A program made the translations under genes and the position numbers. The notes under the pieces are model-generated. The model searched no databases. It saw only the letters and a list, made by a program, of their open reading frames with translations, and was not told where the DNA came from. From an uncultured Gammaproteobacteria bacterium (lineage in GTDB: Bacteria; Patescibacteriota; Microgenomatia; Daviesbacterales; UBA10151), in NCBI GenBank assembly GCA_964500725.1, contig CAZCNP010000001.1, positions 766 through 64,765 on the forward strand: a DNA stretch of 64,000 nucleotides, written 5' to 3'. Shown in pieces: positions 2,467 to 61,316 of the stretch; the first letter of the stretch is position 1; every line of letters begins with the position of its first letter.

Positions 2467-2645
2467 TCAATCGGCACCATTGGATTCATTTCTATAAAGA
2501 ATGTGTGAACAAAATCATTAGCTTTTGGCATTATCTTTAGTTTTCCTGCATCTAAGCCTTTGATTATCCCTTCTAAAAATATCGTTCTGAATTTATGCTT
2601 ACCCCTATCAGTTAGATTGTTATATTCCATTATTTCATTATCCAT
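2436..2645 (-). CDS. Hypothetical small protein (mobile element)
   Basis: ORF overlaps both neighbours. Confidence 0.4.
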   Translation of the reverse strand: MDNEIMEYNNLTDRGKHKFRTIFLEGIIKGLDAGKLKIMPKANDFVHTFFIEMNPMVPIEWEKSIKEAR

Positions 2646-2967
2646 TGTTCTTCCCTTCTAATAGTTTGGCTCGCTCTGCCAGCATAGCTTCCATTTTCTC
2701 CATCTTAAATGCCGGAACGATTGAACCTGTCTTGCCTGTCCCCATGTTTAACAGGGTTTGCTGGTACTCGATCATTAACTTATCCAAAAAGTCTTTTATC
2801 TTTTGCTGTAAAGCTGATAAATAGCCAGGCTTTACCATTTCTTCTTTTAGGATACTGAGCAAGTATTCATTATCACCGTTATTAACCATGAGAGAGCCTA
2901 GGATATAACTTTGAATCATCATCAGCACTTTAGTTTTGTTTTCTTGGTTTTCCATAATTCCTTCCAA
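2638..2967 (-). CDS. Hypothetical protein (mobile element)
   Basis: ORF in the operon. Confidence 0.45.
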   Translation of the reverse strand: MEGIMENQENKTKVLMMIQSYILGSLMVNNGDNEYLLSILKEEMVKPGYLSALQQKIKDFLDKLMIEYQQTLLNMGTGKTGSIVPAFKMEKMEAMLAERAKLLEGKNNG

Positions 2968-3652
2968 ATCGTGTTGTGTGAGATTCTAAAATGCTCTTTT
3001 TTTCGGCTTTGGTTAATCCGCCTTTTTGAAAAGATTGATACCTTTTAATCAGTGGTTCAAGGTGTGTACATTTTGCGCACAACGGTCTTTTTCTGACATC
3101 CTTAGTAAGAACGTCCGTATCACAAATCTCACAGGTTGCTAAACTTAACTGTCTGTTTTTCATTTCCCGTTGTTTTTCTAAGGGTAAATCTGATTTTGTA
3201 GTCTTGGGTTTTTCGTAAGCTGATAACAACTTTCCGAATTTCTCATTTAATCCATTTTGTTTCATAAGGATTCTGACATAATTAGCCAACCGATCGAGCC
3301 TGCTCTCACCTGGAAGGGGTGCTACCATTTTATCTTCCAATGCCCTGATAGTTCCTAATATATCCTCGATCTGGTTGCTCTTAGATTTAACTACTGCATA
3401 ATCAACCAAGTCGCCTACTTTTTCCTTAACCAGATAATCATTATTTTTAGGAATACCCAAAAAGTTAAGAGTTTCATAAAAGGTGGGTGAGCTTCTGTAA
3501 TCATCCTGTGGGATCAATTCTTTTGCTGCTTCAAAATCTTCGGACGTTATCTGGTCTTCCTGGGAAACCTGGTTATCCTGCGTCTCCGGCTGTTCCTGAG
3601 GATTATCAGTAGGTACATCTGTGTATATTGGCTGGGCAGTATTTTCATCCAT
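2930..3652 (-). CDS. Hypothetical protein with an acidic N-terminus and a C-terminal Cys4 zinc ribbon
   Basis: C-terminal CEIC...CAKC motif. Confidence 0.5.
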   Translation of the reverse strand: MDENTAQPIYTDVPTDNPQEQPETQDNQVSQEDQITSEDFEAAKELIPQDDYRSSPTFYETLNFLGIPKNNDYLVKEKVGDLVDYAVVKSKSNQIEDILGTIRALEDKMVAPLPGESRLDRLANYVRILMKQNGLNEKFGKLLSAYEKPKTTKSDLPLEKQREMKNRQLSLATCEICDTDVLTKDVRKRPLCAKCTHLEPLIKRYQSFQKGGLTKAEKKSILESHTTRFGRNYGKPRKQN

Positions 3653-3795
3653 AGTTTTGGTGCATGGGCAGTAGATAGTTACCCTTTAAAAGGCGCTTAA
3701 GGCCACCCATGCGTATTTTTTCTTAAGCCTATATAGAATAACGGCCTAGGAAATTCTGTCAACTAGCAAAGCAGCTAGGTTGTGTTGGCTACCAG

Positions 3796-4137
3796 CTAGT
3801 CCTCGTACAGTGCCTGCCGGTAGCAGCTCTTGCAATAATAAATTAATTTTCCCTCTTCCGCTTCGGTCTCTACCCTTTCACCGCTTAAAGGCTCGTTGCA
3901 GCCGTAGCAGTGACTTCTTTGAAAGATCAACAGTTCATTTTTTAACACCTGCCTAGTCCTACCAACTTTGCCCCTACAGTTTTTGCAATATTTTGCATTA
4001 CTTTTTGTGGCAAATGCTGTTTGGCAATTAAAGCAAACGCTGACATGCGATCTTGGTCGGTATTCCGTCTTTGGTTTCTCGCCAAAGTTTTTAGGTAGGA
4101 TTGTTTTGCCTTGTTTATCCCAGTTTGCAAAGCGCAT
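3796..4137 (-). CDS. Cys-rich zinc-finger protein
   Basis: Multiple CxxC pairs (CFNC, CKNC, CYGC, CKSC). Confidence 0.5.
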   Translation of the reverse strand: MRFANWDKQGKTILPKNFGEKPKTEYRPRSHVSVCFNCQTAFATKSNAKYCKNCRGKVGRTRQVLKNELLIFQRSHCYGCNEPLSGERVETEAEEGKLIYYCKSCYRQALYED

Positions 4138-4989: not shown

Positions 4990-7900
4990 TCATAGTGATT
5001 GCCTTAACATTAATTTTTTAGTAGACAATGGTGTGAAAAGTCGCTTCGGCAGCTTTGGAACCATTATCTTTGCTGGTGTTATTTTATTAATACTTGGACT
5101 AATTTTCCTAATAGGTAAAAACTTTAATTTTTTAGGTCGTGTGTAGTTGCCTGTGGGTGTATCAAGAGTGCCTTTGCTGTAAGCAATTAGCTGATCCAAC
5201 ATTTTTTTCTGTTCTTTGGAAATGTCCCCATCGTCCAACCACTTAGCCGTTACTCCGGTTGATAAAACTTCAACCTCTGCTAAATAAAGAGCTGTCTTTT
5301 TGAATTCCTCATTTGCTAGTCCTTTCAGTGTTCCCTTGATAAACTTACCCCTGCTGCCGTTCTCAACTGATAGTCCCTTCATCATAATTACACTGGCTGT
5401 TTCCCAGCTCAAGCCTTGCTTTTGTAGTATTTCTTCTGTTTGTGCTCTCGGTAGGCCCAAATCAAAAACATCTTTTATTGTTTTCTCGTTTTGGGACATT
5501 TCCCTTTCATTCATCAAAGCATCAAGTAGGGGATCGCCTGTAGGATTCTGTTTAGTTGGTTCTGTAGCTTTTTGTTTAAATAATCCAAACAAATCAAATC
5601 CTGACTTGGGCTGTAAGTCCGGTTTCACTTCCCTGGACCGAATAATCATATTGTGGGCTTCTGTGGGCTTATATCCTGAATTCAGTAATAGTTTGTATGT
5701 TGCTGTTTCTGCCTCTGATAATGGTCTGCCGTCGTCATAATATTGCTGTGCGCCAGAGGTAGTCGTAGGTCCGAAAATAGCAGCTTGTGGACCTTGCACC
5801 GGATACCTTAAACGTCCTGTTTCGGTATAACTTCCACCTTCTCCGATTGCCTTTGTTCCCTCAAAGGTTTTCTTAATCTGTGCACCTGCCGGAAGATAAT
5901 TTATAGCACCTTTCACTACATTTTTATTTAATATACGGTCCTGTAGGCTTAGCGGATTACCATAGGCGTCCTGATCCTGAGTAACAGCTTGAGTTGCACC
6001 GTAGGGTAACTGCAAAGTAGGTGGTACTCCTATCCTTATTGTTGGTATCAAATCTTCAACTTTCATTCCCCATAACCTGCCTAAGGTTGATACCATAAAT
6101 AGGGAAGCGCCTGTCCATCTAACAAGCCCTGCAAAGTCTTTATTTTTTATCATGCCACCCAAAAACTCACCTTGTTTTAAGGTATAGGATTGAAATTGAC
6201 CTAATGTTTTAGCAAGGTCTGAAGAAAGAATCTGAGGAGTATCAATACTGCCAAATGTGAATTGAGTTTCTCTTACCAGTTGCTTTGCATACTTAACCGC
6301 CTCTGCCTCGCTCATGCCCTGACTGATAGCTTTTGCCTTTGCGCCCCAAAAAGCTGCACCCCTGTTGATTTTTTCAGCTAGGTTGAATAGATAAAAAAGG
6401 CCTTCGTCAATCTTTTGCATCGTCTGTTTTGTTGCACTGAGTGTCCGGTCTTCAATTATGTTATTTGCTAAAACTCCCACATCGTGCAGCTCTGTGTCTT
6501 TGCCTGCTAAAAACTTCGGCATATTTTGTAAGACCTTTGTATATCCGATTAAGGTATATTTTTCGCCTAATTTTGCGTAAGTGTTGGCGCCCTGGGTAAG
6601 ATTTAGTAAGGCAGTTTTAACATTGAGCCCCAAAAGTCCCCGGTAAACCATTTGTCGGGCTTTTTGAGTGATAACCGTTAGGGGTCTTGCTCCCATTCTG
6701 TAGCCAAAAGGTGAGGACTTAATGGCATTGTCGATCAAATTATCAATATCCGAGGGCCTCATATTTATACGATCAATCCGGGATTTAACGTACCTGAACT
6801 GCGAATCCTCCAAGCCTTCAGCTGCGTCACTTATCTTTTTTAGCACAGGGTCCAAGTTTACTTTCCTGACGGCCCTTTTTGTGTAAGCATCAAGCGATCG
6901 CCAAACATCCTCAATATAGCCTTGTTTTCCTAGCCGTTGCTCAACAAAAGGATCATAAACTGAACCAGCTACTTTGTCTCGGATTAATTTTGCAAAATCC
7001 GGATCAAATTCTTTTTTTATTAAGTCCTGGTCGAAAATGTGTGTAATGTAATTTGTGATCCTTTTCTCTTTCGGCAAACCCAACCTTTCGGCCCAATTAG
7101 ATAGATAACCTTTGATCTCTTCTGCAACCTTTAACTCTTCCCCCTGCAAAATAGTATTTTTTCCATCTAGCCATTGAAAGATTTTTTGATTTGATTCAGG
7201 CAAAACACGCTTACTCCAATCCGTAATCCTTTGAATCTCTTGCGGTAGTTCTGTTTGATAGCTGTCAAAAGCAGTCCGGAGCTGCTCCGCCTGTTTTCCT
7301 AAACCTATTTTATTAAGTACATATTCGGGTGTTCTGAAATAGTCCAGAATGTTTACCTTTGATTTAACATCAATGCTGCTTTTTAAAGAATTTTCAAAGG
7401 CACTGGCTGAATCGTAATTACCTTGCGATTTAATCCAGTCCAAAGGCGTCATATTATTTTCAATAATTTTCTGGCTTTCCTTATATCCGATCTTGTCTAT
7501 CTGGGCTTTTTTAAAACCTCTTGCGATTAAGTCATTCCCGTAATTTAAAAGGTTTGAGAGCCTTGCTTCTTTAGTGGCTGCTGTAGCAATCTTTGCTCCT
7601 ACCTTTGCCCCAACTTGAGTAACGCCCATTGGTGAAAAACTCAAAGCTTGTTCTGCTATTTGCTCCTGAGTTGGCAGTGGATTCTTTTGTGCAAAGTTTG
7701 ATCTACGTCTTAGGCCTTCCGGTGTTTCACCAAATCCTGCAAAACTGGCAACGTCTTTCCCGTAATTGACTGCGGGCTGAATATATCTAGTGTTTACGTT
7801 CTGAAGCCTTTTCTGTAAATTATTTGCCAGTGTATCAATTGTTGGTTTTAAAACCGTATGCGCTTGACCTAAGAAATTTTGAAAACCTTGGTTTAACTCA

Positions 7901-8175
7901 TTCATTTGCGGCTGAGCTATTTTTTTTAATTCGTTTATAAATCGGTCTTGAGCGACTTCAGTCGGTGGGGTAAATCTAGGTAATTGGCTGGGGGGTTGTG
8001 GGGGTAAAGGGTTAAAATTTTGTGGCCGGGGTGTTTGTAAAAAATTCTGAAAACCCGTTTCTAAGTTTTCCAAACCTTGACTCGCTTTCTGGGCAACAGT
8101 ATTAAAGTTGCTAGCAGAAATTATTTTTTTTACGGCTTCTGATCCGAATTTTTCTAATGCCGTCGAAATGCTCAT
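4990..8175 (-). CDS. Large hypothetical protein (1061 aa), possibly virion-associated or structural
   Basis: Long ORF with a Pro/Gln-rich N-terminal region and a Lys-rich C-terminus. It is the largest gene of the element. I recognise no catalytic motif. Confidence 0.55.
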   Translation of the reverse strand: MSISTALEKFGSEAVKKIISASNFNTVAQKASQGLENLETGFQNFLQTPRPQNFNPLPPQPPSQLPRFTPPTEVAQDRFINELKKIAQPQMNELNQGFQNFLGQAHTVLKPTIDTLANNLQKRLQNVNTRYIQPAVNYGKDVASFAGFGETPEGLRRRSNFAQKNPLPTQEQIAEQALSFSPMGVTQVGAKVGAKIATAATKEARLSNLLNYGNDLIARGFKKAQIDKIGYKESQKIIENNMTPLDWIKSQGNYDSASAFENSLKSSIDVKSKVNILDYFRTPEYVLNKIGLGKQAEQLRTAFDSYQTELPQEIQRITDWSKRVLPESNQKIFQWLDGKNTILQGEELKVAEEIKGYLSNWAERLGLPKEKRITNYITHIFDQDLIKKEFDPDFAKLIRDKVAGSVYDPFVEQRLGKQGYIEDVWRSLDAYTKRAVRKVNLDPVLKKISDAAEGLEDSQFRYVKSRIDRINMRPSDIDNLIDNAIKSSPFGYRMGARPLTVITQKARQMVYRGLLGLNVKTALLNLTQGANTYAKLGEKYTLIGYTKVLQNMPKFLAGKDTELHDVGVLANNIIEDRTLSATKQTMQKIDEGLFYLFNLAEKINRGAAFWGAKAKAISQGMSEAEAVKYAKQLVRETQFTFGSIDTPQILSSDLAKTLGQFQSYTLKQGEFLGGMIKNKDFAGLVRWTGASLFMVSTLGRLWGMKVEDLIPTIRIGVPPTLQLPYGATQAVTQDQDAYGNPLSLQDRILNKNVVKGAINYLPAGAQIKKTFEGTKAIGEGGSYTETGRLRYPVQGPQAAIFGPTTTSGAQQYYDDGRPLSEAETATYKLLLNSGYKPTEAHNMIIRSREVKPDLQPKSGFDLFGLFKQKATEPTKQNPTGDPLLDALMNEREMSQNEKTIKDVFDLGLPRAQTEEILQKQGLSWETASVIMMKGLSVENGSRGKFIKGTLKGLANEEFKKTALYLAEVEVLSTGVTAKWLDDGDISKEQKKMLDQLIAYSKGTLDTPTGNYTRPKKLKFLPIRKISPSINKITPAKIMVPKLPKRLFTPLSTKKLMLRQSL

Positions 8176-8183
8176 ATTGTAAT

Positions 8184-9455
8184 TTAAACGAAAGGATTTG
8201 TTAGATTTTCATAAGGGTCATCTTTATTACCCTTTGTTGGAGCGTATAAAGAATATGAATTCAAACCTTGGCTTTGTGGGGACAAACTTTGCGAACCAGA
8301 AAAACCGGAATAATCTAAAGTCGGCTGCTGAAGCTGGGAGAAGTTGTTTGCAATTTGCGCGTTTTGCTCGTATTTCCATATTTCTAAATCCCAGAGGGCT
8401 GCTTGGCGAGTAGCCGCTAAATTATCTATTTGTGATTTGTATTGACTCAAGAGCTGAAAAGCATTCCCCGCCTTGGCTGACTTTATTGAACTCTCGTCTG
8501 AAAAAATCTGCATAAGCTGGGCTTGAGCGTTGGCTCTGATTTTTTGCTCTTCCGTAAGGACATTCTCATCAATTTTTCGTCTCTGATTGAAGGCGTATCG
8601 GTCCAGTTGCGCGGCATAATCCTGCAATTTAGCTGTTTGATTTGTATATGAGCGCTCATTTGCCCCTTGCTGTCTGGCAAATTCCTTAGAGGCTATTTCT
8701 GTAGCGGCCATCCCTGCACTGCCCCTACCTCCGAATCTGGCTTGGGATTGCTGTTGAAGGGCTTTATACGAGCGGAGAGCCTCGTCAAAAGCTGACGTTT
8801 TTTCTGCATCTAACGCGCCTTGCGAGGTCTTAATTGTATCAAAACCAAGTTGCTTTTGCTCTTCCACATCTCTCTTCATTTGCTCTTGTTGCAATTTCAA
8901 ATCATTAAGCGCTCCTGGTAAAGAAACGTCATTAATATATGATTTTTGTTGTTGAAGAGTGTCAAAAAGTGGATTATAAATACTATCCAATTGTGCACTC
9001 AAATCCGGCTGACTGTTTGATGAACCATAGCCACGGGCTTGTCTTAATCTGTTTATATCGCCACCCATAGCAGAATTGAAGTCATTAATTGCGGAACCTT
9101 CGGGCCAACCTTGATAAAATGGCGAAATTTGATCCCAAAGAGAACCACCGCCGGAATTATTTTGCTGAGGTGCAGGAGTTGGTGCAGGTGCAGGTTTGGC
9201 AGGCTGTGGGACGTTATAACCTACAACACCGGAACTGCTCAAAGGACTAATCAAGCCTGGCGTTTGGTACGGTGTCAGTTGAGCACTGGTTGAGGTCCGG
9301 TAATTTAAATCTAACGGACTGGTGCTTCTATAAAATAAATCATTTGGTACGTTTAATGCCATAATTTTTCCCAATAAAAAAGAGCCCTTTGCCGTTTTGG
9401 CTTTTGGACTCTCTGAATGACCTTTTAAGGTCAAAACAAATATTTGTATTCTCAA
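8184..9455 (-). CDS. Gln/Asn-rich coiled-coil protein (423 aa), possibly scaffold- or fibre-like
   Basis: ORF with Q/N-rich and Pro-Ala stretches. It is the first gene of the leftward operon. Confidence 0.5.
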   Translation of the reverse strand: MRIQIFVLTLKGHSESPKAKTAKGSFLLGKIMALNVPNDLFYRSTSPLDLNYRTSTSAQLTPYQTPGLISPLSSSGVVGYNVPQPAKPAPAPTPAPQQNNSGGGSLWDQISPFYQGWPEGSAINDFNSAMGGDINRLRQARGYGSSNSQPDLSAQLDSIYNPLFDTLQQQKSYINDVSLPGALNDLKLQQEQMKRDVEEQKQLGFDTIKTSQGALDAEKTSAFDEALRSYKALQQQSQARFGGRGSAGMAATEIASKEFARQQGANERSYTNQTAKLQDYAAQLDRYAFNQRRKIDENVLTEEQKIRANAQAQLMQIFSDESSIKSAKAGNAFQLLSQYKSQIDNLAATRQAALWDLEIWKYEQNAQIANNFSQLQQPTLDYSGFSGSQSLSPQSQGLNSYSLYAPTKGNKDDPYENLTNPFV

Positions 9456-9703
9456 GTATATAGGCTGTGGAAAAGTTGTCTAGATACCAAAATAGGCACA
9501 AATCAAAAAAAACTACCCAAAAATCAAAGGCCCTGTAGTTCGATTTAAGGGCTTACAGATAGTGTCCCCTACTCTTAGGGTCAACTAAACTAAAAATTAC
9601 AGGCACAAAATGAAGCTAAAATAGTGGGGGAGTGGTAGGGTATCAAACTATGTCAAAAATGCCTTAGTTTGGATGAGTATATCAAAGTGTATCAAGAAAA
9701 GAT

Positions 9704-9970
9704 TTAACTGCTGTTTTTCTGTGACGTGGCTATATTACAAAGCTGTTCACAGACGAAGTCCGCAGCTTTTCTATCAGACAAACCGCTGGGCACTTCAACG
9801 TGAATGTTTCTGATTTCTATTGCAAATCGCTCTGCGTCCTCACCAGAGTTAAAATAACCTGGTAAAAAACCTCTTGAGGTTTCTTTATTCACAAGAACTG
9901 CAATTGCTGCCTGGAACTTGCCTGTTTGATGATCTTGCCTCACTCCTTTGATTTCAACTTTGTAATTCAT
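9704..9970 (-). CDS. Hypothetical small protein
   Basis: ORF upstream of the leftward operon. Confidence 0.4.
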   Translation of the reverse strand: MNYKVEIKGVRQDHQTGKFQAAIAVLVNKETSRGFLPGYFNSGEDAERFAIEIRNIHVEVPSGLSDRKAADFVCEQLCNIATSQKNSS

Positions 9971-10059
9971 TATTTTAATATTACCAGAACCTTAAAACAT
10001 ATCTAAGCCTATAGATATTTTGGTCTTATTTTGCGCACAAAATGCTTTTAAGTTGCCCC

Positions 10060-10088
10060 TTGACGACAAATATTTTTGGTAGTATTCT
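10060..10088 (+). promoter_or_regulatory. Candidate sigma70-type promoter (TTGACG, 17-nt spacer, TATTCT) driving the rightward replication operon, inside a divergent control region
   Basis: Hexamers read directly from the sequence. Nested inverted repeats (AGCAGC..TCGGAgcgaTCCGA..GCTGCT, then a T-run) lie at about 10140-10200. Confidence 0.3.
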
Positions 10089-10283
10089 TGTTTGCAGTTA
10101 GAAAATAAGAACAGCTAATTCAGCTTTTAAAAAAGCACTTTAGCAGCTATATTTTTCGGAGCGATCCGAAAGAAATGGCTGCTTTTTTTGTGGAATTTTT
10201 AGATTAAAGGAGAGATTCAGTAGGTGGTAATTAATGTTTTCTTGAAAAACTGGGCATATTCCGCCACCTACTGAAAACAAAAC

Positions 10284-13768: not shown

Positions 13769-14809
13769 TTAGGATATTTCAACTTCAAGAGTCAGAATAT
13801 TTCCTTTTAAATTTCCACCTTTAATAATACGTCCAACTTCCCAAGCATGAGAAATCAGTTCTTTGGCTTTCTCTTCTGCGCTTCTGAATTTTCTAGCCTC
13901 TGAACTGTAATTTTTTAAAGTTTTAGCTTGAGTGCTTGTATCAAACTGTAAATACCTTAATGTGGTTTCTACTGCCCTATGTCCCATTACGTCTTTAATG
14001 TCTGAAACATCGGCACCGTTAGCTTTTAAATCCCTGGCAAATATCCGGCGTAAGTCGTGCACATTCATGCTGTTACCCCAAAGCTTACCAACTTTTCGCA
14101 TATGTACCTCTAATTTTTGCATATTAACCACAAACAAACGGTCCTTGTCACTTTCTTTATAGTGGCTTTTATCTTTTAAAGTTTTAAGTTCATCCGGTGT
14201 GCGCTCACCATTTACACGCCTCTTTAAATCTTCCAACAACCAAGGTATGTTTGGCAATGCTGCATTCCTGGGTCCGTTCTTGCCTTCAACAATTGTGAGC
14301 TGATTACCACTGAGCGAAACGTCTTTTCTTAATATCTGGGAAGTCTCAAAGTTTCTACCACCACAAGCTACAACCATAAAGCTGAGACAGGCCCGGTGTT
14401 CCATTTTAGAGAATGTTGATAGCCTACTGTCATATTTGCCTGGCTCTGTAGCTTCTTTTATCAGTCCTAAGACTTCGGATTGAGACGGTAAAACACGGGC
14501 TTTCCTGTGTACATGGGTTCGGTCAATATTAACTGTCCATTTTTTAGGGATAATATCTTCATAAAATAGCCAGTCTGCAAAAGCCAGGACAGCGGTTTCA
14601 GCCTGTCTTCTGGTTGACTCTGCCAAACCTTTATCCGGTAGATAGTTAAAGAATTTGATAATGATTTCACGGTTTAAGGGTCCGTCTAAGTATTCAAGGA
14701 ATAGTTTGAAGTAATACAGGTTATTAGTCCTGGTGGATTTTGATTGCCACCTTCGCTGCCTGTGTTCTATAAATCTTTCTAAATGTGTACGCACCTGCTC
14801 TTTATCCAT
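13769..14809 (-). CDS. int: Tyrosine recombinase / integrase
   Basis: C-terminal HDLRRIFARDL....GHRAVETTLRYL motif (His, Arg, catalytic Tyr). The ORF-track start at 14890 is a GTG overlapping the tRNA, so I trimmed it to the ATG (MDKEQ...). Confidence 0.85.
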   Translation of the reverse strand: MDKEQVRTHLERFIEHRQRRWQSKSTRTNNLYYFKLFLEYLDGPLNREIIIKFFNYLPDKGLAESTRRQAETAVLAFADWLFYEDIIPKKWTVNIDRTHVHRKARVLPSQSEVLGLIKEATEPGKYDSRLSTFSKMEHRACLSFMVVACGGRNFETSQILRKDVSLSGNQLTIVEGKNGPRNAALPNIPWLLEDLKRRVNGERTPDELKTLKDKSHYKESDKDRLFVVNMQKLEVHMRKVGKLWGNSMNVHDLRRIFARDLKANGADVSDIKDVMGHRAVETTLRYLQFDTSTQAKTLKNYSSEARKFRSAEEKAKELISHAWEVGRIIKGGNLKGNILTLEVEIS

Positions 14810-14883
14810 ATAAAAGAATAAAGAGATGGTGTCATTCCGCAAGACCTTAACCCACCCGTATGAGTGAGAACTCACCTCAATTG

Positions 14884-14956
14884 TGGGCACTGAGGGATTC
14901 GGACCCCCGACAACCGCAGTGTAAATGCGGTGCTCTACCAGCTGAGCTAAGTGCCC
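14884..14956 (-). tRNA. tRNA-Val (anticodon TAC)
   Basis: Hand-folded cloverleaf: acceptor GGGCACT/AGTGCCC, anticodon stem CCGCA/TGCGG, loop TTTACAC, T-loop TCCGAAT. Confidence 0.85.
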
Positions 14957-14991
14957 AATTTCTGCTCAGCCCGCAGAGCATAGCACAAATA

Positions 14992-15035
14992 CTTCGCAGT
15001 GTAAACGAAGCGCTCTACCACTGAGCTAAGTGCCC
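14992..15035 (-). pseudogene. 5'-half pseudo-tRNA-Val (acceptor, D-arm and anticodon region only); an att-associated remnant
   Basis: GGGCACTTAGCTCAGTGGTAGAGCGCTTCGTTTACACTGCGAAG. The intact tRNA-Val has the same acceptor and the same 11-nt TTTACACTGCG anticodon-region core, but a different D-loop and anticodon stem. The T-arm is missing. Confidence 0.6.
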
Positions 15036-15036
15036 T

Positions 15037-15123
15037 TGGTGGGCGGGACAGGACTTGAACCTGCACAGTCTTGCGACCATATGCACCTCAAGCATACACG
15101 TATACCAATTCCGTCACCCGCCC
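15037..15123 (-). tRNA. tRNA-Leu (anticodon GAG), long variable arm, encoded CCA
   Basis: Acceptor GGGCGGG/CCCGCCC, anticodon stem TATGC/GCATA, loop TTGAGGT, T-loop TTCAAGT, 87 nt. Confidence 0.8.
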
Positions 15124-18043: not shown

Positions 18044-18766
18044 GTGGCTACCTCAGCGCAAATCGCTATAAAAGCTCGAGAATTTATAAAAACCCATAAA
18101 CCACAATTATGCCAAAAGTTTGCCAGCTTAGAAGAATATCCTCCTGTTGAAAAACCATCTGCTTACTTTATGGCTGGCTCGCCTGGAGCTGGTAAAACAG
18201 AATTCTCCAAGTCTTTTATAAAAGAATTATCAGAAAAAGAACCTACAAGAAGAATTGTCAGAATAGATGCTGATGAGATCAGAGATTTTATCCCTTTCTA
18301 TGATAAAACCAATGCTTATAGAATTCAGGGAGCTGCAGCATTAGGAGTTGAAAAATTATTAGACTGCACATTACAAAACAATCAGGATTTCATACTGGAT
18401 GCTACTTTTGCTGATTTAGAAAAATCTCGTACAAATATCTTACGCTGTCTTCATAAAAAACGTAAGATTGCGGTCGTATATTTATATCAAGATCCAGTAG
18501 TAGCCTGGCAATTTACTAAAAAGAGAGAAAAACTAGAGGGAAGAAAAATTCCCTTAGATATGTTTATAAATGCTTTTTTTGCAGCCAAAGAAAATGTTAA
18601 CAAAATTAAAAAAGAATTTAAAAATTACAAGGAAGTAGAATTGTGGCTTATTATAAAAAATTTAGAGCAGGGTATTGAAAAAACTTATTTTAATATAGAT
18701 AATGTTGATAGTTACCTGAAAATAGATTATACTGCAGAGTCCTTAAAGGAGAAATTAAGAAAATAA
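18044..18766 (+). CDS. Zeta-toxin family P-loop kinase (AAA_33-like)
   Basis: Aligns to PezT/zeta at the Walker A (AYFMAGSPGAGKTEF), at IVRIDADEIR and at the ILDATF block. Confidence 0.6.
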   Translation: MATSAQIAIKAREFIKTHKPQLCQKFASLEEYPPVEKPSAYFMAGSPGAGKTEFSKSFIKELSEKEPTRRIVRIDADEIRDFIPFYDKTNAYRIQGAAALGVEKLLDCTLQNNQDFILDATFADLEKSRTNILRCLHKKRKIAVVYLYQDPVVAWQFTKKREKLEGRKIPLDMFINAFFAAKENVNKIKKEFKNYKEVELWLIIKNLEQGIEKTYFNIDNVDSYLKIDYTAESLKEKLRK

Positions 18767-57797: not shown

Positions 57798-57826
57798 TTC
57801 CTACATTCCCACATCGGATGTAGGAA
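57798..57826. repeat. REP-like variant hairpin (TTCCTACAT tcccacatcgg ATGTAGGAA), 3' of the transposase
   Basis: 9-bp inverted repeat that contains the family core TTCCCACATCGGA. Confidence 0.7.
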
Positions 57827-57832
57827 TACGAA

Positions 57833-58555
57833 TTAATCTTCACCATCAATTAGTAATCCAAACAGTGCAGGATCATAAACTTCAGTTTCCTCAACAAAAG
57901 ACTGATAATCTAAATTGGGATTAGTTTTGGAAAAAAATGAATTAATAAAACCAGTATCACAAAAAGGATGCTGTTTTCCAGATAAATAATATGAATAAGA
58001 GGAATAGGGGTAATGTCTACGTTCCCACATCGGAAGTGGGAAGCTGTTTCTATGTATATATTTTGATAGGTGAAGAAGGTATTCTTCTGTCTCAACTAAC
58101 TTGGCTTTAAAACTGCCTTGAAATAAAGAACCAACTCTATCATGTTTAGTATTAAAGTATCTTGTGTAACTATCTGCTAATCTCCTTAAGAATTCTGATA
58201 TACCACCATCAGATATTTGCTGGACTAACAGGTGAAAATGGTTTGGCATCAAACAATAACAATATATTCTAACCAATTCTGTTTGATTCTCTATTTTTTT
58301 GAGTTTTATTACACCTCTTCTAAAATCTGAAAGTTTCATAGGTACAGGATATTTGCGGTAAAAATCCAAAGTTTCTAAAAACCTCAAATGATCTCTTCTA
58401 TCCATAAAGGTTTTTCTTTTTTCAACACCGCGGTTATAAATATGATAAAAACTGCCACTTACAAATGGGGGATTAACCACAAACTTATTCTCTACATTCG
58501 TGTTCCCACATGTCAAGTGGGAATTCAACTGGAAGAAACTAGTGCTTTTTCCCAT
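57833..58555 (-). CDS. tnpA: Y1 HuH transposase (IS200/IS605 TnpA-like / REP-associated tyrosine transposase)
   Basis: FYHIYNRGVEKRKTF, HuH motif CLMPNHFHLLV and a C-terminal catalytic YIHRN. Both ORF ends read through REP-like palindromes, so the true N- and C-termini are probably shorter. Confidence 0.75.
   Translation of the reverse strand: MGKSTSFFQLNSHLTCGNTNVENKFVVNPPFVSGSFYHIYNRGVEKRKTFMDRRDHLRFLETLDFYRKYPVPMKLSDFRRGVIKLKKIENQTELVRIYCYCLMPNHFHLLVQQISDGGISEFLRRLADSYTRYFNTKHDRVGSLFQGSFKAKLVETEEYLLHLSKYIHRNSFPLPMWERRHYPYSSYSYYLSGKQHPFCDTGFINSFFSKTNPNLDYQSFVEETEVYDPALFGLLIDGED
58018..58044. repeat. REP-like 27-nt palindrome (ACGTTCCCAC ATCGGAA GTGGGAAGCT) overlapping the transposase 3' end
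   Basis: Canonical family member. It shares both arms with the GT2 copy and differs only in spacer orientation. Confidence 0.8.
58501..58529. repeat. REP-like variant (GTTCCCAC ATGTCAA GTGGGAATTC), 27 nt inside the transposase 5' end
   Basis: Same 7-bp arms with a different spacer. It shares the GTGGGAATTCA flank with the recG copy. Confidence 0.7.
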
Positions 58556-59010
58556 ATCTCTTGGTTACGAGATAAGAAAAACTTATGATCAGAATAACCA
58601 TCCCTCCTTAATTGTTCTCTGGTATAAGGCTGGTGACCTGATCTTTGCATCTCTTGTAAAATAGCTCCTCTCTGATCTGGGGTAGCTCCATCAAATCTAA
58701 TCTTTCTCCAAAATCTAACACTCCAATGCATAGCATCTACTGGAGTAACTAAACCTCTGGAGCGTGGAATGTTGACCATTGCATGGTTTATCAACAATTT
58801 GGCATCTACTTCGCTTCTTGCCAACGGATCAATTCCACCAATACGCACCCCCCAATCGCGACCCAAATACCTTTCAATATTTTCAATAGCACCAAAATAT
58901 CTCCGTCTCTCCCATACAGATTCTGCGTTAGGATCAAATCTACCTTCGCCCCTTCCGTCTTGAGGACATAAACCAAAATATAAATATAACTCAGCGTAAG
59001 CTTCTGGCAT
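58525..59010 (-). CDS. Hypothetical protein (161 aa), GC-richer
   Basis: ORF. I recognise no motif. Confidence 0.45.
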   Translation of the reverse strand: MPEAYAELYLYFGLCPQDGRGEGRFDPNAESVWERRRYFGAIENIERYLGRDWGVRIGGIDPLARSEVDAKLLINHAMVNIPRSRGLVTPVDAMHWSVRFWRKIRFDGATPDQRGAILQEMQRSGHQPYTREQLRRDGYSDHKFFLSRNQEIWEKALVSSS

Positions 59011-59045: not shown

Positions 59046-59120
59046 CTTACTTAGTCTAATTTTTCCCTTTGATTCCTTAGGAAAAGAAACCACTGTTCAA
59101 AGAAGGCAAATATGCCTTTT
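59046..59120. repeat. Direct repeat copy A (about 72 nt), a duplicate of the 3' end of gene 59745-61316
   Basis: 62 nt (59049-59110) are identical to 59744-59805, then one mismatch, then ATGCCTTT. Confidence 0.8.
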
Positions 59121-59131
59121 ATCTTGCTATA

Positions 59132-59476
59132 ATGAATCTTACTATGAAACTTCCCAATGGCAATAATGCTTTAGTTTCCAAAGAGAAGTTGACTGGTTAT
59201 CTTCTTTCAGAAACCCATGCAGTAGGTAAGGCGAAGGCTAAGTTCTTTCGTAAATTAGGGTTTAATGAATCCAATGTCAATAAGTTTGAGAAATCATTGC
59301 TAAATATTGCAAAGAGAAACGAAATAAAAAATGTTAAGGAATTCACATATGGTATTAATTATGTCTTAGAAGGGAAAATTAAAACTCCAAGTAGAAAAAT
59401 AATAACTCTAGTGACAGTCTGGTTTACTAAAACAAAAGGAGGAAGACCTAGTTTTGTAACAGCATATCCTGTATAA
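59132..59476 (+). CDS. DUF6883-like protein (predicted toxin-like partner of DUF4926)
   Basis: KLTGYLLSETHAVGKAKAKFFRKLGF resembles the DUF6883 signature. Family recalled from memory. Confidence 0.45.
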   Translation: MNLTMKLPNGNNALVSKEKLTGYLLSETHAVGKAKAKFFRKLGFNESNVNKFEKSLLNIAKRNEIKNVKEFTYGINYVLEGKIKTPSRKIITLVTVWFTKTKGGRPSFVTAYPV

Positions 59477-59494
59477 TACATAAGGGATAAATTT

Positions 59495-59731
59495 ATGCAC
59501 AAATTTAAGAATTTAGAAACAGTTATATTAACTCATGATATTAAAAAATACGGTCTCTGCAAAGGAGACATGGGAGCTGTTGTAAATGTGTACGAAGATG
59601 GCAAAGCAGCAGAAGTAGAATTTGTGACTGCTGCCGGTAAAACCGCAGCGCTAGTTACTCTAACTTCTGATGATGTTCGCGACATCAAACAAAACGATAT
59701 ACTTCATGTCAGAGGCTTTGCTGCAGTATAA
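59495..59731 (+). CDS. DUF4926 domain protein
   Basis: VILTHDIKKYGLCKGDMGAVVNVYEDGKAAEVEFVTAAGKTAALVTL matches the DUF4926 pattern. Confidence 0.55.
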   Translation: MHKFKNLETVILTHDIKKYGLCKGDMGAVVNVYEDGKAAEVEFVTAAGKTAALVTLTSDDVRDIKQNDILHVRGFAAV

Positions 59732-59740
59732 TTCTTATAT

Positions 59741-59817
59741 CTACTTAGTCTAATTTTTCCCTTTGATTCCTTAGGAAAAGAAACCACTGTTCAAAGAAGG
59801 CAAAGATGCCTTTAAAT
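59741..59817. repeat. Direct repeat copy B (native 3' end of gene 59745-61316)
   Basis: See copy A. It encodes ...FFEQWFLFLRNQREKLD and the stop. Confidence 0.8.
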
Positions 59818-61316
59818 GGAGTCTCAATAATAAAATCAAAGATAAATAGAAGAATATTTATCTGGGAAATTGCTAAGGTTAACCTGCTTCCTATTTGAAT
59901 AAAAGGCATAAAGAAAAAGTCCATTACTACTGAGCTTATTCTTTCCCTTTTTTCTTTCATCACATACATATTGGCTGTTCTATTAATCCTAAAACTGACA
60001 AAAGAAACTATTGCCAGGAAGAACAAAAATATCCCCTGGGATAGAGGATTAATCCCTACTTTAGTTAAAACAAAAACAATTGACCCAAGACTAATACCAA
60101 AAGCAGTTAGCCACATCAGTATAAACAAACTCCACATCAAGGGATCAGTTTTGCTTGGTTTTTTCTTTACTGTCAAAGGCTGGTCCAAAGCTGGAGGATC
60201 ATCATACAAAATAGTATTTATTTTCTTTAAAATCTTAAATGAATTTTCCCTTGTTGGAGTTTTAATTAAAAACCCTACTAAAATCATCAAGGCTGGAGGA
60301 GTTAAGGTATTTAAAACTATAGAAGGCCAAAGTATCCTGCCATACAAAATCCTTTCAAATGTTCCTTCCACAAAAAGGGCAAACACAGCCTTTGTACAAA
60401 ATATAAAAATAACACTTCTAACAATTGCTCTGTTAACTTTGCTTCTGATAGCTTTATAGCGCGCATTACAAGCTGCTAAAATTTCTGAATTTAGACGATC
60501 TTCGTCTAAAACTAAAGCTGCAGTTTTACCCCGATACTTTCTGAAAACATCATCCAAAATTAAAAAGGGGACTGACTGATTCTTAATATAAGTATATATT
60601 TTGTCTTTAGCTGGATATTTAAAATGATCCTCAAATTGCTTATAAGCATCCGCAAAACCTTCTGCCACTTTTTCTAAATTCTCACTATTTAAATGCCCAA
60701 AGTATTGTTTAAAAAGGTGATAGCGTAAAAATGCCAAATCATCGTTGGCATATGCCCGCCTCACAGCAATAAAAGTCTGGATATTCTTTACCTCATCAGT
60801 ATCATCAGCAATTGTTATTCTATCTTTGAAGATATTAAAGATAAAATTACTCATAACATCTTTGGGATCATTGGGTTTTAAAATATGCTCAATCTCAGAA
60901 GATACAAGGTGCATAATCCATTCATTTACTGCTCCTTTACCAATGCGGTGCTTCTGGTTAACTTTTCGTTCTAACTCCAAGTATAAATCTAGGGCATGTG
61001 AAACTTGAGCTACCTGAGATTCAGCTATAGTAAAATCAGGAAAATATCTTGCCCAAACAAGTTCGCGAATTAAAGGGGTAGCAACAGTTTTACCTTCTCC
61101 TCCTAGTATTAATCTTCTTTTTAATATTCGCTCAATGGCAGCCCGGAGAATTACCTCTTCAGCTCTATAATCCATTGCAGTTCTAAATTTTTCATACCAG
61201 GTAGCAAGCTCAGCCACCACAGGGTTAACAGAAATAGTCCTATCATGGTTTTGGGCAGAATTTTTATCATATGCTGCAGTTAATGCCTGAGAAAGCCTGT
61301 TTAAGTTTTTAGACAT
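59745..61316 (-). CDS. Hypothetical protein (523 aa) with a large cytoplasmic N-domain and a C-terminal multi-TM region
   Basis: ORF with C-terminal hydrophobic helices. Confidence 0.5.
   Translation of the reverse strand: MSKNLNRLSQALTAAYDKNSAQNHDRTISVNPVVAELATWYEKFRTAMDYRAEEVILRAAIERILKRRLILGGEGKTVATPLIRELVWARYFPDFTIAESQVAQVSHALDLYLELERKVNQKHRIGKGAVNEWIMHLVSSEIEHILKPNDPKDVMSNFIFNIFKDRITIADDTDEVKNIQTFIAVRRAYANDDLAFLRYHLFKQYFGHLNSENLEKVAEGFADAYKQFEDHFKYPAKDKIYTYIKNQSVPFLILDDVFRKYRGKTAALVLDEDRLNSEILAACNARYKAIRSKVNRAIVRSVIFIFCTKAVFALFVEGTFERILYGRILWPSIVLNTLTPPALMILVGFLIKTPTRENSFKILKKINTILYDDPPALDQPLTVKKKPSKTDPLMWSLFILMWLTAFGISLGSIVFVLTKVGINPLSQGIFLFFLAIVSFVSFRINRTANMYVMKEKRERISSVVMDFFFMPFIQIGSRLTLAISQINILLFIFDFIIETPFKGIFAFFEQWFLFLRNQREKLD

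Follow-up and report, generated by a model that had tools for sequence, protein, structure and literature searches.

A putative toxin-antitoxin cassette between duplicated 3' ends of a membrane-protein gene in a Daviesbacterales genome

The DNA considered here, referred to as the window, is a stretch of 64,000 nucleotides (nt) from an assembly deposited as an uncultured Gammaproteobacteria bacterium and placed by GTDB in the Patescibacteriota (Microgenomatia; Daviesbacterales; UBA10151; GCA_964500725.1, contig CAZCNP010000001.1, positions 766 to 64,765 of the forward strand). The analysis traced the sequence to contig JACQIW010000013.1 of a Candidatus Daviesbacteria metagenome-assembled genome (GCA_016198315.1). 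Near one end of the window, the 3' end of a gene for a membrane protein of 523 amino acids (aa) occurs twice, and the two copies enclose a cassette of two small genes belonging to the families DUF6883 and DUF4926 (Table 1). The genes of this cassette resemble a toxin-antitoxin pair, and similar displaced gene ends recur, with other cargo, in related lineages. With moderate confidence, the arrangement is read as the product of an old event in which an addiction module entered at the 3' end of a conserved gene with long target duplication.

The duplicated gene end and the enclosed genes

The two gene ends form direct repeats of 72 nt (59048-59119 versus 59742-59813) that are 71/72 identical and spaced 694 nt apart. 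The first 63 nt of the repeat are an exact match present in two copies in the window, against none expected in shuffled sequences, and the pair is the only direct repeat of at least 40 nt within the whole 64 kb. Copy B, part of the gene itself, contains the last 22 codons (69 coding bases including the stop at 59745-59747) and 3 further nt. Copy A, situated between the start of the DUF6883 gene and a 161-aa gene, still translates as KGIFAFFEQWFLFLRNQREKLD followed by a stop codon. The single mismatch (T at 59111 in copy A, G at 59805 in copy B) is synonymous (ATA versus ATC, both Ile). The two cassette genes are co-oriented, adjacent and small, with a spacer of 18 nt, and 13 nt separate the stop codon of the DUF4926 gene from the converging one of the 523-aa gene. 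A first inspection of the letters alone (the sequence-only reading) had described a gene end duplicated around just these two genes; the repeat alignment confirms the duplication, and nothing but the two genes lies between the copies.

Table 1. Features of the locus, with positions in the window, and relatives carrying the same cassette
Feature	Position (strand)	Length	Description
Y1_Tnp gene	57833..58555 (-)		REP-associated tyrosine-transposase-like gene; hairpin GTTCCCACATGTCAAGTGGGAA at 58502-58523
161-aa orphan gene	58525..59010 (-)	161 aa	between copy A and the Y1 gene; outside the repeat-flanked unit
Repeat copy A	59048..59119 (-)	72 nt	displaced duplicate of the gene end; frame intact, stop 59051-59053
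Cassette, unique part	59120..59741 (+)	622 nt	only the DUF6883 and DUF4926 genes
DUF6883 gene	59132..59476 (+)	114 aa (110 aa from 59144, the GenBank start)	putative toxin
DUF4926 gene	59495..59731 (+)	78 aa	putative antitoxin or immunity partner
Repeat copy B	59742..59813 (-)	72 nt	working 3' end of the 523-aa gene
Target gene	59745..61316 (-)	523 aa	membrane protein, no family assignment
L102, Logan contig		displaced copy 79 nt	87% nt identity to the window; displaced copy 80% identical to resident copy
L103, GCA_964415615.1		displaced copy 67 nt	DUF6883 72% aa identity; displaced copy 87% identical, one nonsense codon
L098, GCA_027424735.1		displaced copy 51 nt	DUF6883 73% aa identity; displaced copy with one frameshift

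The cassette contains neither terminal inverted repeats nor a mobility gene (transposase, integrase), and the duplicated segment is far longer than the footprint of a transposase, the latter as the sequence-only reading had argued. In the window the repeat is present in two copies, and in related loci it is confined to the locus of the 523-aa gene. A scan for promoters and terminators around the repeats found nothing above chance. A functional hairpin within the repeat was considered and rejected, as its palindromes are imposed by the codons and are not kept in relatives. The enrichment in guanine and cytosine first attributed to both the cassette and the adjacent 161-aa gene applies to the latter (fraction 0.40-0.42) but not to the cassette (0.31-0.37, versus about 0.33 in the surroundings).

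Profile searches bear out both family assignments (DUF6883, PF21814, E 7e-27; DUF4926, PF16277, E 1e-19). NCBIfam supplied no names, and a sequence search against the PDB found no match for either. An AlphaFold model of the DUF6883 protein, built with 53 homologues, has a predicted local distance difference test score (pLDDT) of 95. In a Foldseek search, its only significant PDB matches were the four toxin-sized chains of 6CP9, the CdiA-CT/CdiI structure of Klebsiella pneumoniae 342 (TM 0.73-0.75, E ~6e-5). The model shares with the CdiA-CT Kp342 toxin a topology of helices followed by four strands, and the invariant residues of the family are K15, Y19, H25, K31, T91, W93 and T106. The CdiA-CT Kp342 toxin is a BECR-family tRNase with an active site of Lys, Tyr, His, Arg and Thr (PMC9086364). 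The DUF6883 protein therefore models as a putative BECR-fold RNase-like toxin. The single-sequence model of the DUF4926 protein was poor (pLDDT 51) and was not used.

The order DUF6883 then DUF4926 is retained in four related loci (L016, L098, L102 and L103) and is also found on Nitrosococcus and Thermus plasmids, from two other phyla, where the genes overlap or abut. As in type II toxin-antitoxin modules, the two genes are co-oriented and kept together across distant taxa and on plasmids, and one partner has a predicted toxin fold. Gene order and structural model together support a toxin-first toxin-antitoxin module, and the suspicion of a toxin-antitoxin-like pair in the sequence-only reading holds in view of the CdiA-CT-like fold and the plasmid pairs. 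The 64 kb contain a further toxin-type gene, encoding a zeta-toxin family protein (18044-18766; PF06414, E 7e-37).

Related loci and the recurrence of displaced gene ends

The same cassette is carried by at least three relatives from other projects, all of them Daviesbacteria lineages (Table 1). In L102, L103 and L098 the DUF pair lies behind the 523-aa gene and converges on it, and a displaced gene end sits beside the start of the DUF6883 gene. The cassette-side junction consists of CATTATAGCAAGATA followed by the repeat in both the window and L102, appears as recognisable variants in L103 and is present in a decayed form in L098. A fourth locus, L016, has a decayed form of the junction and a 33-nt gene-end remnant directly upstream of atpB. 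Its DUF pair is a much more diverged allele (DUF6883 49% aa identity, while atpB is at 89%). Among the window, L102, L103 and L098, the divergence of the cassette genes tracks that of the 523-aa and other host genes, and relatives with an empty site are nested or interleaved among the carriers. The simplest history suggested by these comparisons would be one old insertion followed by vertical inheritance; since the empty relatives are nested among carriers, it would also include later losses or additional gains. A recent insertion private to this genome, in contrast, is not borne out, as the same cassette and junction occur in the three relatives. The sequence-only reading had held that an arrangement shared by related genomes, with no insertion polymorphism and a common genome-wide repeat, would speak against an insertion. 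The duplicated arrangement is indeed shared, but presence/absence polymorphism exists, and within the 64 kb the repeat has only its two copies.

More than 1200 homologues of the target gene exist, and those with names that come closest belong to Daviesbacteria and other Patescibacteria. A scan of a collection of genome contigs with the 523-aa protein found two distant loci only. The C-terminus of the protein (PFKGIFAFFEQWFLFLRTQREKLD) is almost invariant, and its last 24 residues are nearly invariant among homologues. Relatives keep the gene order RecG, TyrRS, 523-aa gene, atpB operon, and in 28 of the 50 related loci carrying both genes atpB lies 2-117 nt from the 523-aa gene. From this adjacency it follows that the DUF pair and the 161-aa gene were both added later, in agreement with the earlier claim that the pair is inserted relative to the ancestral layout. 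The closest full-length relatives (523-aa identity 80-82%) have atpB directly after the 523-aa gene (L010, L011); in L004-L006 a Y1_Tnp gene follows instead, preceded by a hairpin as at 58502-58523 of the window. Altogether, L004-L011 and many JGI loci have just one gene end, with Y1_Tnp or atpB immediately after it. The empty site predicted from the sequence, with one repeat copy followed by the gene at 58525-59010, did not turn up in any relative, and the 161-aa gene too is missing from those with an empty site.

Displaced gene ends are not limited to this cassette. The surveyed loci were gathered via the 523-aa gene, and each was scanned with a sensitive search for copies of its own gene end. 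Displaced ends of 29-79 nt were detected in 10 lineages, comprising the window, L102, L103, L098, L016 and five more: L038 (two extra copies, 63 and 70 nt), L042 (50 nt), L083 (48 nt), L096 (38 nt) and L072 (29 nt). L038 contains a three-copy array (6502-10118), in which a gene end is followed by a 2.75-kb Bro-N cassette, a second gene end, an MNT+HepT pair and a third gene end. The neighbouring TyrRS gene has its last ~55-62 nt duplicated in the same way in L021, L038, L058 and L065. In L038, a metagenomic Daviesbacteria-like contig, a DUF3800 cassette lies between two TyrRS 3' ends of 62 nt that are 95% identical (2508-3909). Every displaced copy reaches the stop codon (plus 0-3 nt), whereas the 5' limit is specific to each cassette and lies 29-79 nt upstream. 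Long repeats in L023 and L088 were rejected as gene ends, being intergenic palindromic elements; in L088, two such 84-nt repeats (99% identical) enclose a thioredoxin gene (6608-7168) just downstream of the 523-aa homologue.

The cargo between displaced ends consists mostly of toxin-antitoxin pairs. Besides the DUF pair and MNT+HepT (L038), it includes RelB with YafQ/ParE (L083), a DUF2283 gene with a small partner (L065; the same pair by sequence in L021), DUF5678 with a retropepsin-like protein (L096), DUF3800 and a methyltransferase-like protein. No recombinase or transposase was found among the roughly dozen related cassettes. Where an insertion at this position carries no toxin-antitoxin genes, the duplication is absent too; such insertions include a possible sigma-factor-like open reading frame (ORF; judged by eye), Y1_Tnp genes and orphan ORFs. 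Scans of viral contigs for the repeat and for DUF6883 were empty and gave no sign of a phage attP.

The displaced copies have diverged as coding sequences do. Eleven pairs of resident and displaced copies contain 59 synonymous and 8 non-synonymous codon differences, with 11.8 synonymous differences expected by chance (binomial p ~5e-36), and the nucleotide differences at codon positions 1, 2 and 3 number 20, 7 and 56. Comparisons of displaced copies between genomes give synonymous to non-synonymous ratios of 7:1, 9:2 and 8:1. The displaced copy of L102 differs from the working gene end of L098 at 5/51 positions and from its own resident copy at 11/51. Because decay of a non-coding copy in place would not give synonymous-only divergence, the displaced copies must, on this sequence evidence, have come from working alleles again and again, perhaps through gene conversion, allele exchange between lineages, or cycles of excision and re-integration. 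The identity of the two copies is 71/72 in the window and 80-87% in the relatives, including 80% in L102, the sister that shares the junction; near-identity in the window is best explained by recent gene conversion (homogenisation) or re-integration. Separately, the resident gene end of L102 (737-809) shares synonymous variants (TTTTTTGAGCAGTGGTTTTT) with the Curtissbacteria-labelled L002 and not with its nearest relatives, which hints at allele exchange at the gene 3' end.

The slot of the 161-aa gene, on the far side of copy A, varies separately from the cassette. The 161-aa protein has only five homologues among 5.8 billion proteins; in its place, L103 has an orphan ORF of 175 aa that is unrelated, and L098 has yet another one, of 204 aa. 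In L016, a homologue of the 161-aa gene lies on the opposite side of the DUF6883/DUF4926 pair. The Y1 transposase-like gene is a conserved neighbour in several relatives, and nothing ties it to the cassette. Similar 22-nt palindromes bracket it and one lies inside it (57805-57826, 58021-58042, 58502-58523). Its product shares 93% identity with its counterpart in relatives, and the 523-aa proteins of the same relatives share only 80%. Its conservation suggests a conserved, domesticated gene, not an active insertion sequence (IS).

Origin of the arrangement

Insertion with long target duplication reportedly was described for restriction-modification gene complexes by Nobusato et al. in 2000 (Gene 259:99). 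The insert at the 523-aa gene shares its outward features, as the repeats are 72 nt long and the insert, at 622 nt, is small and free of transposase, integrase and inverted repeats. Such insertions are recognized by unique direct repeats of more than 30 bp, the absence of mobility genes and an empty site in relatives; published inserts are below 20 kb, a stop or start codon frequently lies within the repeats, which preserves the target gene, and the cargo consists of addiction modules (Furuta, Abe and Kobayashi 2010, PMC2853133). An empty site with a single copy of the target is found here in relatives at 80-82% identity of the 523-aa protein, which is not the strain level, and the cargo is a toxin-antitoxin-like pair in place of a restriction-modification system, making the locus a variant and not a strict member of the published class.

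Under the favoured reading, the DUF6883-DUF4926 module would have entered precisely where the 523-aa gene ends, duplicating the last ~70 nt of that gene. The copy joined to the gene body keeps the gene intact, and the other copy lies beyond the insert. Recombination between the direct repeats could then excise the cassette scarlessly and leave the gene whole, and such repeat-mediated loss would account for the nesting of empty relatives among carriers. A circle made of one repeat and the cassette might also re-enter any genome that has the same gene end. Post-segregational killing would penalise cells that delete the cassette through the repeats, and the dominance of toxin-antitoxin cargo among repeat-flanked inserts may arise because this killing selects against loss. 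Observed here are the layout of the locus, its recurrence, the empty sites, the toxin-like fold, the lack of recombinase genes and the synonymous-only divergence; we infer how the duplication first arose, that conversion or re-integration followed, and that the toxin-antitoxin pair stabilises the insert.

Several points weigh against this account. An old non-coding copy should decay randomly, and the coding pattern of the displaced ends forces an extra assumption (conversion, re-integration or exchange). A strain-level empty site for this genome was not found, and gain or loss has not been directly observed. The toxicity of DUF6883 and its neutralisation by DUF4926 remain presumed. The choice of loci via this one gene limits any estimate of genome-wide frequency, and the 64-kb window contains a single case. 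Finally, the mechanism of long target duplication is unexplained even for restriction-modification systems (PMC2853133).

Tentatively, and with less conviction, the cassette may instead be a homology-driven mobile unit, in which a circle of repeat and cassette forms through recombination of the two repeats and enters the conserved gene end of another cell or lineage by a single Campbell-type crossover, with arrays forming by repeated integration. Such a unit would be integron-like but without an integrase, and since each cycle would copy the working gene end, displaced copies would stay coding-like. It would account for the boundaries (3' always at the stop, plus 0-3 nt; 5' specific to the cassette), for the two unrelated cassettes in the three-copy array of L038 and for differences that are synonymous only, whether the copies compared come from one genome or are displaced copies from several. 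The displaced end in L102, nearer to the working end of L098 than to its own resident copy, the toxin-antitoxin allele of L016, far more diverged than its atpB, and the interleaving of carriers with empty genomes point the same way. However, in the window, L102, L103 and L098 the divergence of the cassette parallels that of the host genes, as vertical descent predicts, and 50-70 nt of homology at 80-90% identity are a poor substrate for RecA. Moreover, no circular form was seen, and the viral contigs contained neither the repeat nor DUF6883. A wider form of the same idea, similarly doubtful, is that the 3' ends of housekeeping genes (the 523-aa protein, TyrRS) act as portable homology-based recombination sites for integrase-less toxin-antitoxin or defence cassettes in the candidate phyla radiation (CPR).

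Site-specific integration is improbable. The repeats would then be attL and attR, and the cassette either an integrase-less remnant or a cis-mobilisable element served by a tyrosine recombinase in trans. Integration at a 3' end with a replacement end supplied by the element is the classic geometry of integrases, several independent Daviesbacteria cassettes have similar repeat lengths (63-72 nt), and the window does encode a tyrosine recombinase (13769-14890) beside tRNA-Val. However, that enzyme, the only recombinase in the window, lies at its own tRNA site 45 kb away, and none of the roughly dozen cassettes encodes one. The targets are two unrelated genes, and the repeat has no inverted-repeat core beyond palindromes that are codon-imposed and unconserved in relatives. 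The 5' limit, varying from 29 to 79 nt among events, is a poor fit to one fixed recombinase site, and the att-like repeat suggested by the sequence-only reading becomes unlikely. Nor does the locus show the traits of an att-flanked integrative element, there being no recombinase in or beside the cassette and no fixed crossover position. As for the distant site, the 373-aa recombinase (Phage_integrase, E 8e-11; weakly Xer-like) abuts tRNA-Val(TAC) at 14883-14956, and a tRNA-Val-like fragment of 26 nt (85% identical; 14995-15020) lies 80 nt further on, before tRNA-Leu. From its sequence, this region (13769-15123) looks like a classical integrase island.

More improbable still is one-sided homologous capture, that is, homology-facilitated illegitimate recombination after DNA uptake, with the duplication as an accident. 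Incoming donor DNA would anchor in the conserved gene end, and its far end would join illegitimately slightly upstream in the recipient. The variable lengths of the duplications and the resemblance of the copies to different working alleles of the gene end are compatible with such events, and the published restriction-modification cases come mostly from naturally competent species (PMC2853133). Yet each illegitimate join would have to lie somewhere in the final 30-80 nt of the gene, the junction is shared by several lineages and so requires few independent events, and no microhomology is visible at the junctions of the window.

Three known kinds of mobile element were rejected. A transposon or IS footprint does not fit a duplication of 72 nt (versus 2-14 bp) in a cassette without terminal inverted repeats or hairpins. 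Mobilisation of the Y1/IS200/IS605 type makes no duplication, and REP-like hairpins flank the Y1 gene only. An integron cassette is excluded because the repeated site codes for part of the 523-aa protein and the locus has no attC, intI or attI.

An assembly artefact, by which a strain variant was mis-threaded or a small circle collapsed into the contig, is highly improbable, although the source is a metagenome-assembled genome and a cycle in the assembly graph would yield just such a repeat-cassette-repeat order. Three Logan assemblies of other runs (L013-L015) are 100% identical over the junction of DUF6883, copy A and the 161-aa gene. Contig L013 crosses copy A including both flanks, whereas L015 and L014 stop 30 and 63 nt into the repeat, matching the graph break expected at k=31. 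An exact-protein look-up of DUF4926 returned the source genome alone, so the copy B junction is without an independent same-strain contig; that of the 114-aa DUF6883 ORF found no match, because the start codon in the database differs. The two copies of the window differ at one base, and the same repeat-flanked layout, with diverged copies, is present in L102, L103 and L098. Since independent contigs and three other genomes share the architecture, the layout is real and not an assembly artefact.

Known systems and biological meaning

Of the known categories, insertion with long target duplication comes closest, and the locus differs from it in cargo. Likenesses include a small insert free of mobility genes, long and variable repeats that span the stop codon, an intact target gene and addiction-type cargo. 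Unlike the restriction-modification cases, the cassettes carry toxin-antitoxin pairs, reside in CPR/Microgenomates hosts, derive from an old insertion seen in several lineages and form arrays of up to three copies. The synonymous-only divergence of displaced copies is not reported for the restriction-modification cases in PMC2853133. In the literature searched, reviews of toxin-antitoxin systems mention the term only as an analogy.

The arrangement also resembles three other systems. Integrase islands and cis-mobilisable elements, which use the 3' ends of tRNA, transfer-messenger RNA and protein genes, likewise duplicate the target end, supply a replacement and form tandem arrays separable by copies of the site. 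Here, in contrast, no integrase lies in or beside any cassette, the boundaries vary, and the inserts measure 0.4-2.8 kb. Chromosomal integron arrays share small, promoter-poor cassettes, a repeated site of 60-130 nt and frequent toxin-antitoxin cargo thought to be stabilising. However, the repeated site here is a coding gene end and not an attC hairpin, and both an IntI gene and attI are missing. The orphan toxin-immunity modules downstream of cdiA and rhs resemble the cassette in that 3' fragments of a neighbouring gene are displaced together with toxin-immunity pairs, as well as in the CdiA-CT tRNase fold. Unlike in those modules, the fragment derives from a gene for an unrelated membrane protein and is separate from the toxin, and in the window the pair is transcribed towards that gene and does not form its C-terminal tip.

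How small defence modules, toxin-antitoxin pairs among them, spread through chromosomes without a recombinase of their own is poorly understood, least of all in the CPR, whose members have tiny genomes and few classical mobile elements. The locus and its relatives offer a repeated, datable example, in which the target gene stays intact, scarless loss is possible and addiction modules are apparently favoured. Long target duplication, documented so far, in the literature searched, for restriction-modification systems, would thereby extend to toxin-antitoxin pairs and to an uncultivated phylum. Synonymous-only divergence of the displaced copies would be a novel sign, simple to test for, that lineages recombine at these sites. 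If gene ends are indeed portable sites, this would give rise to integron-like arrays and would explain why displaced ends remain coding-like over long evolutionary distances.

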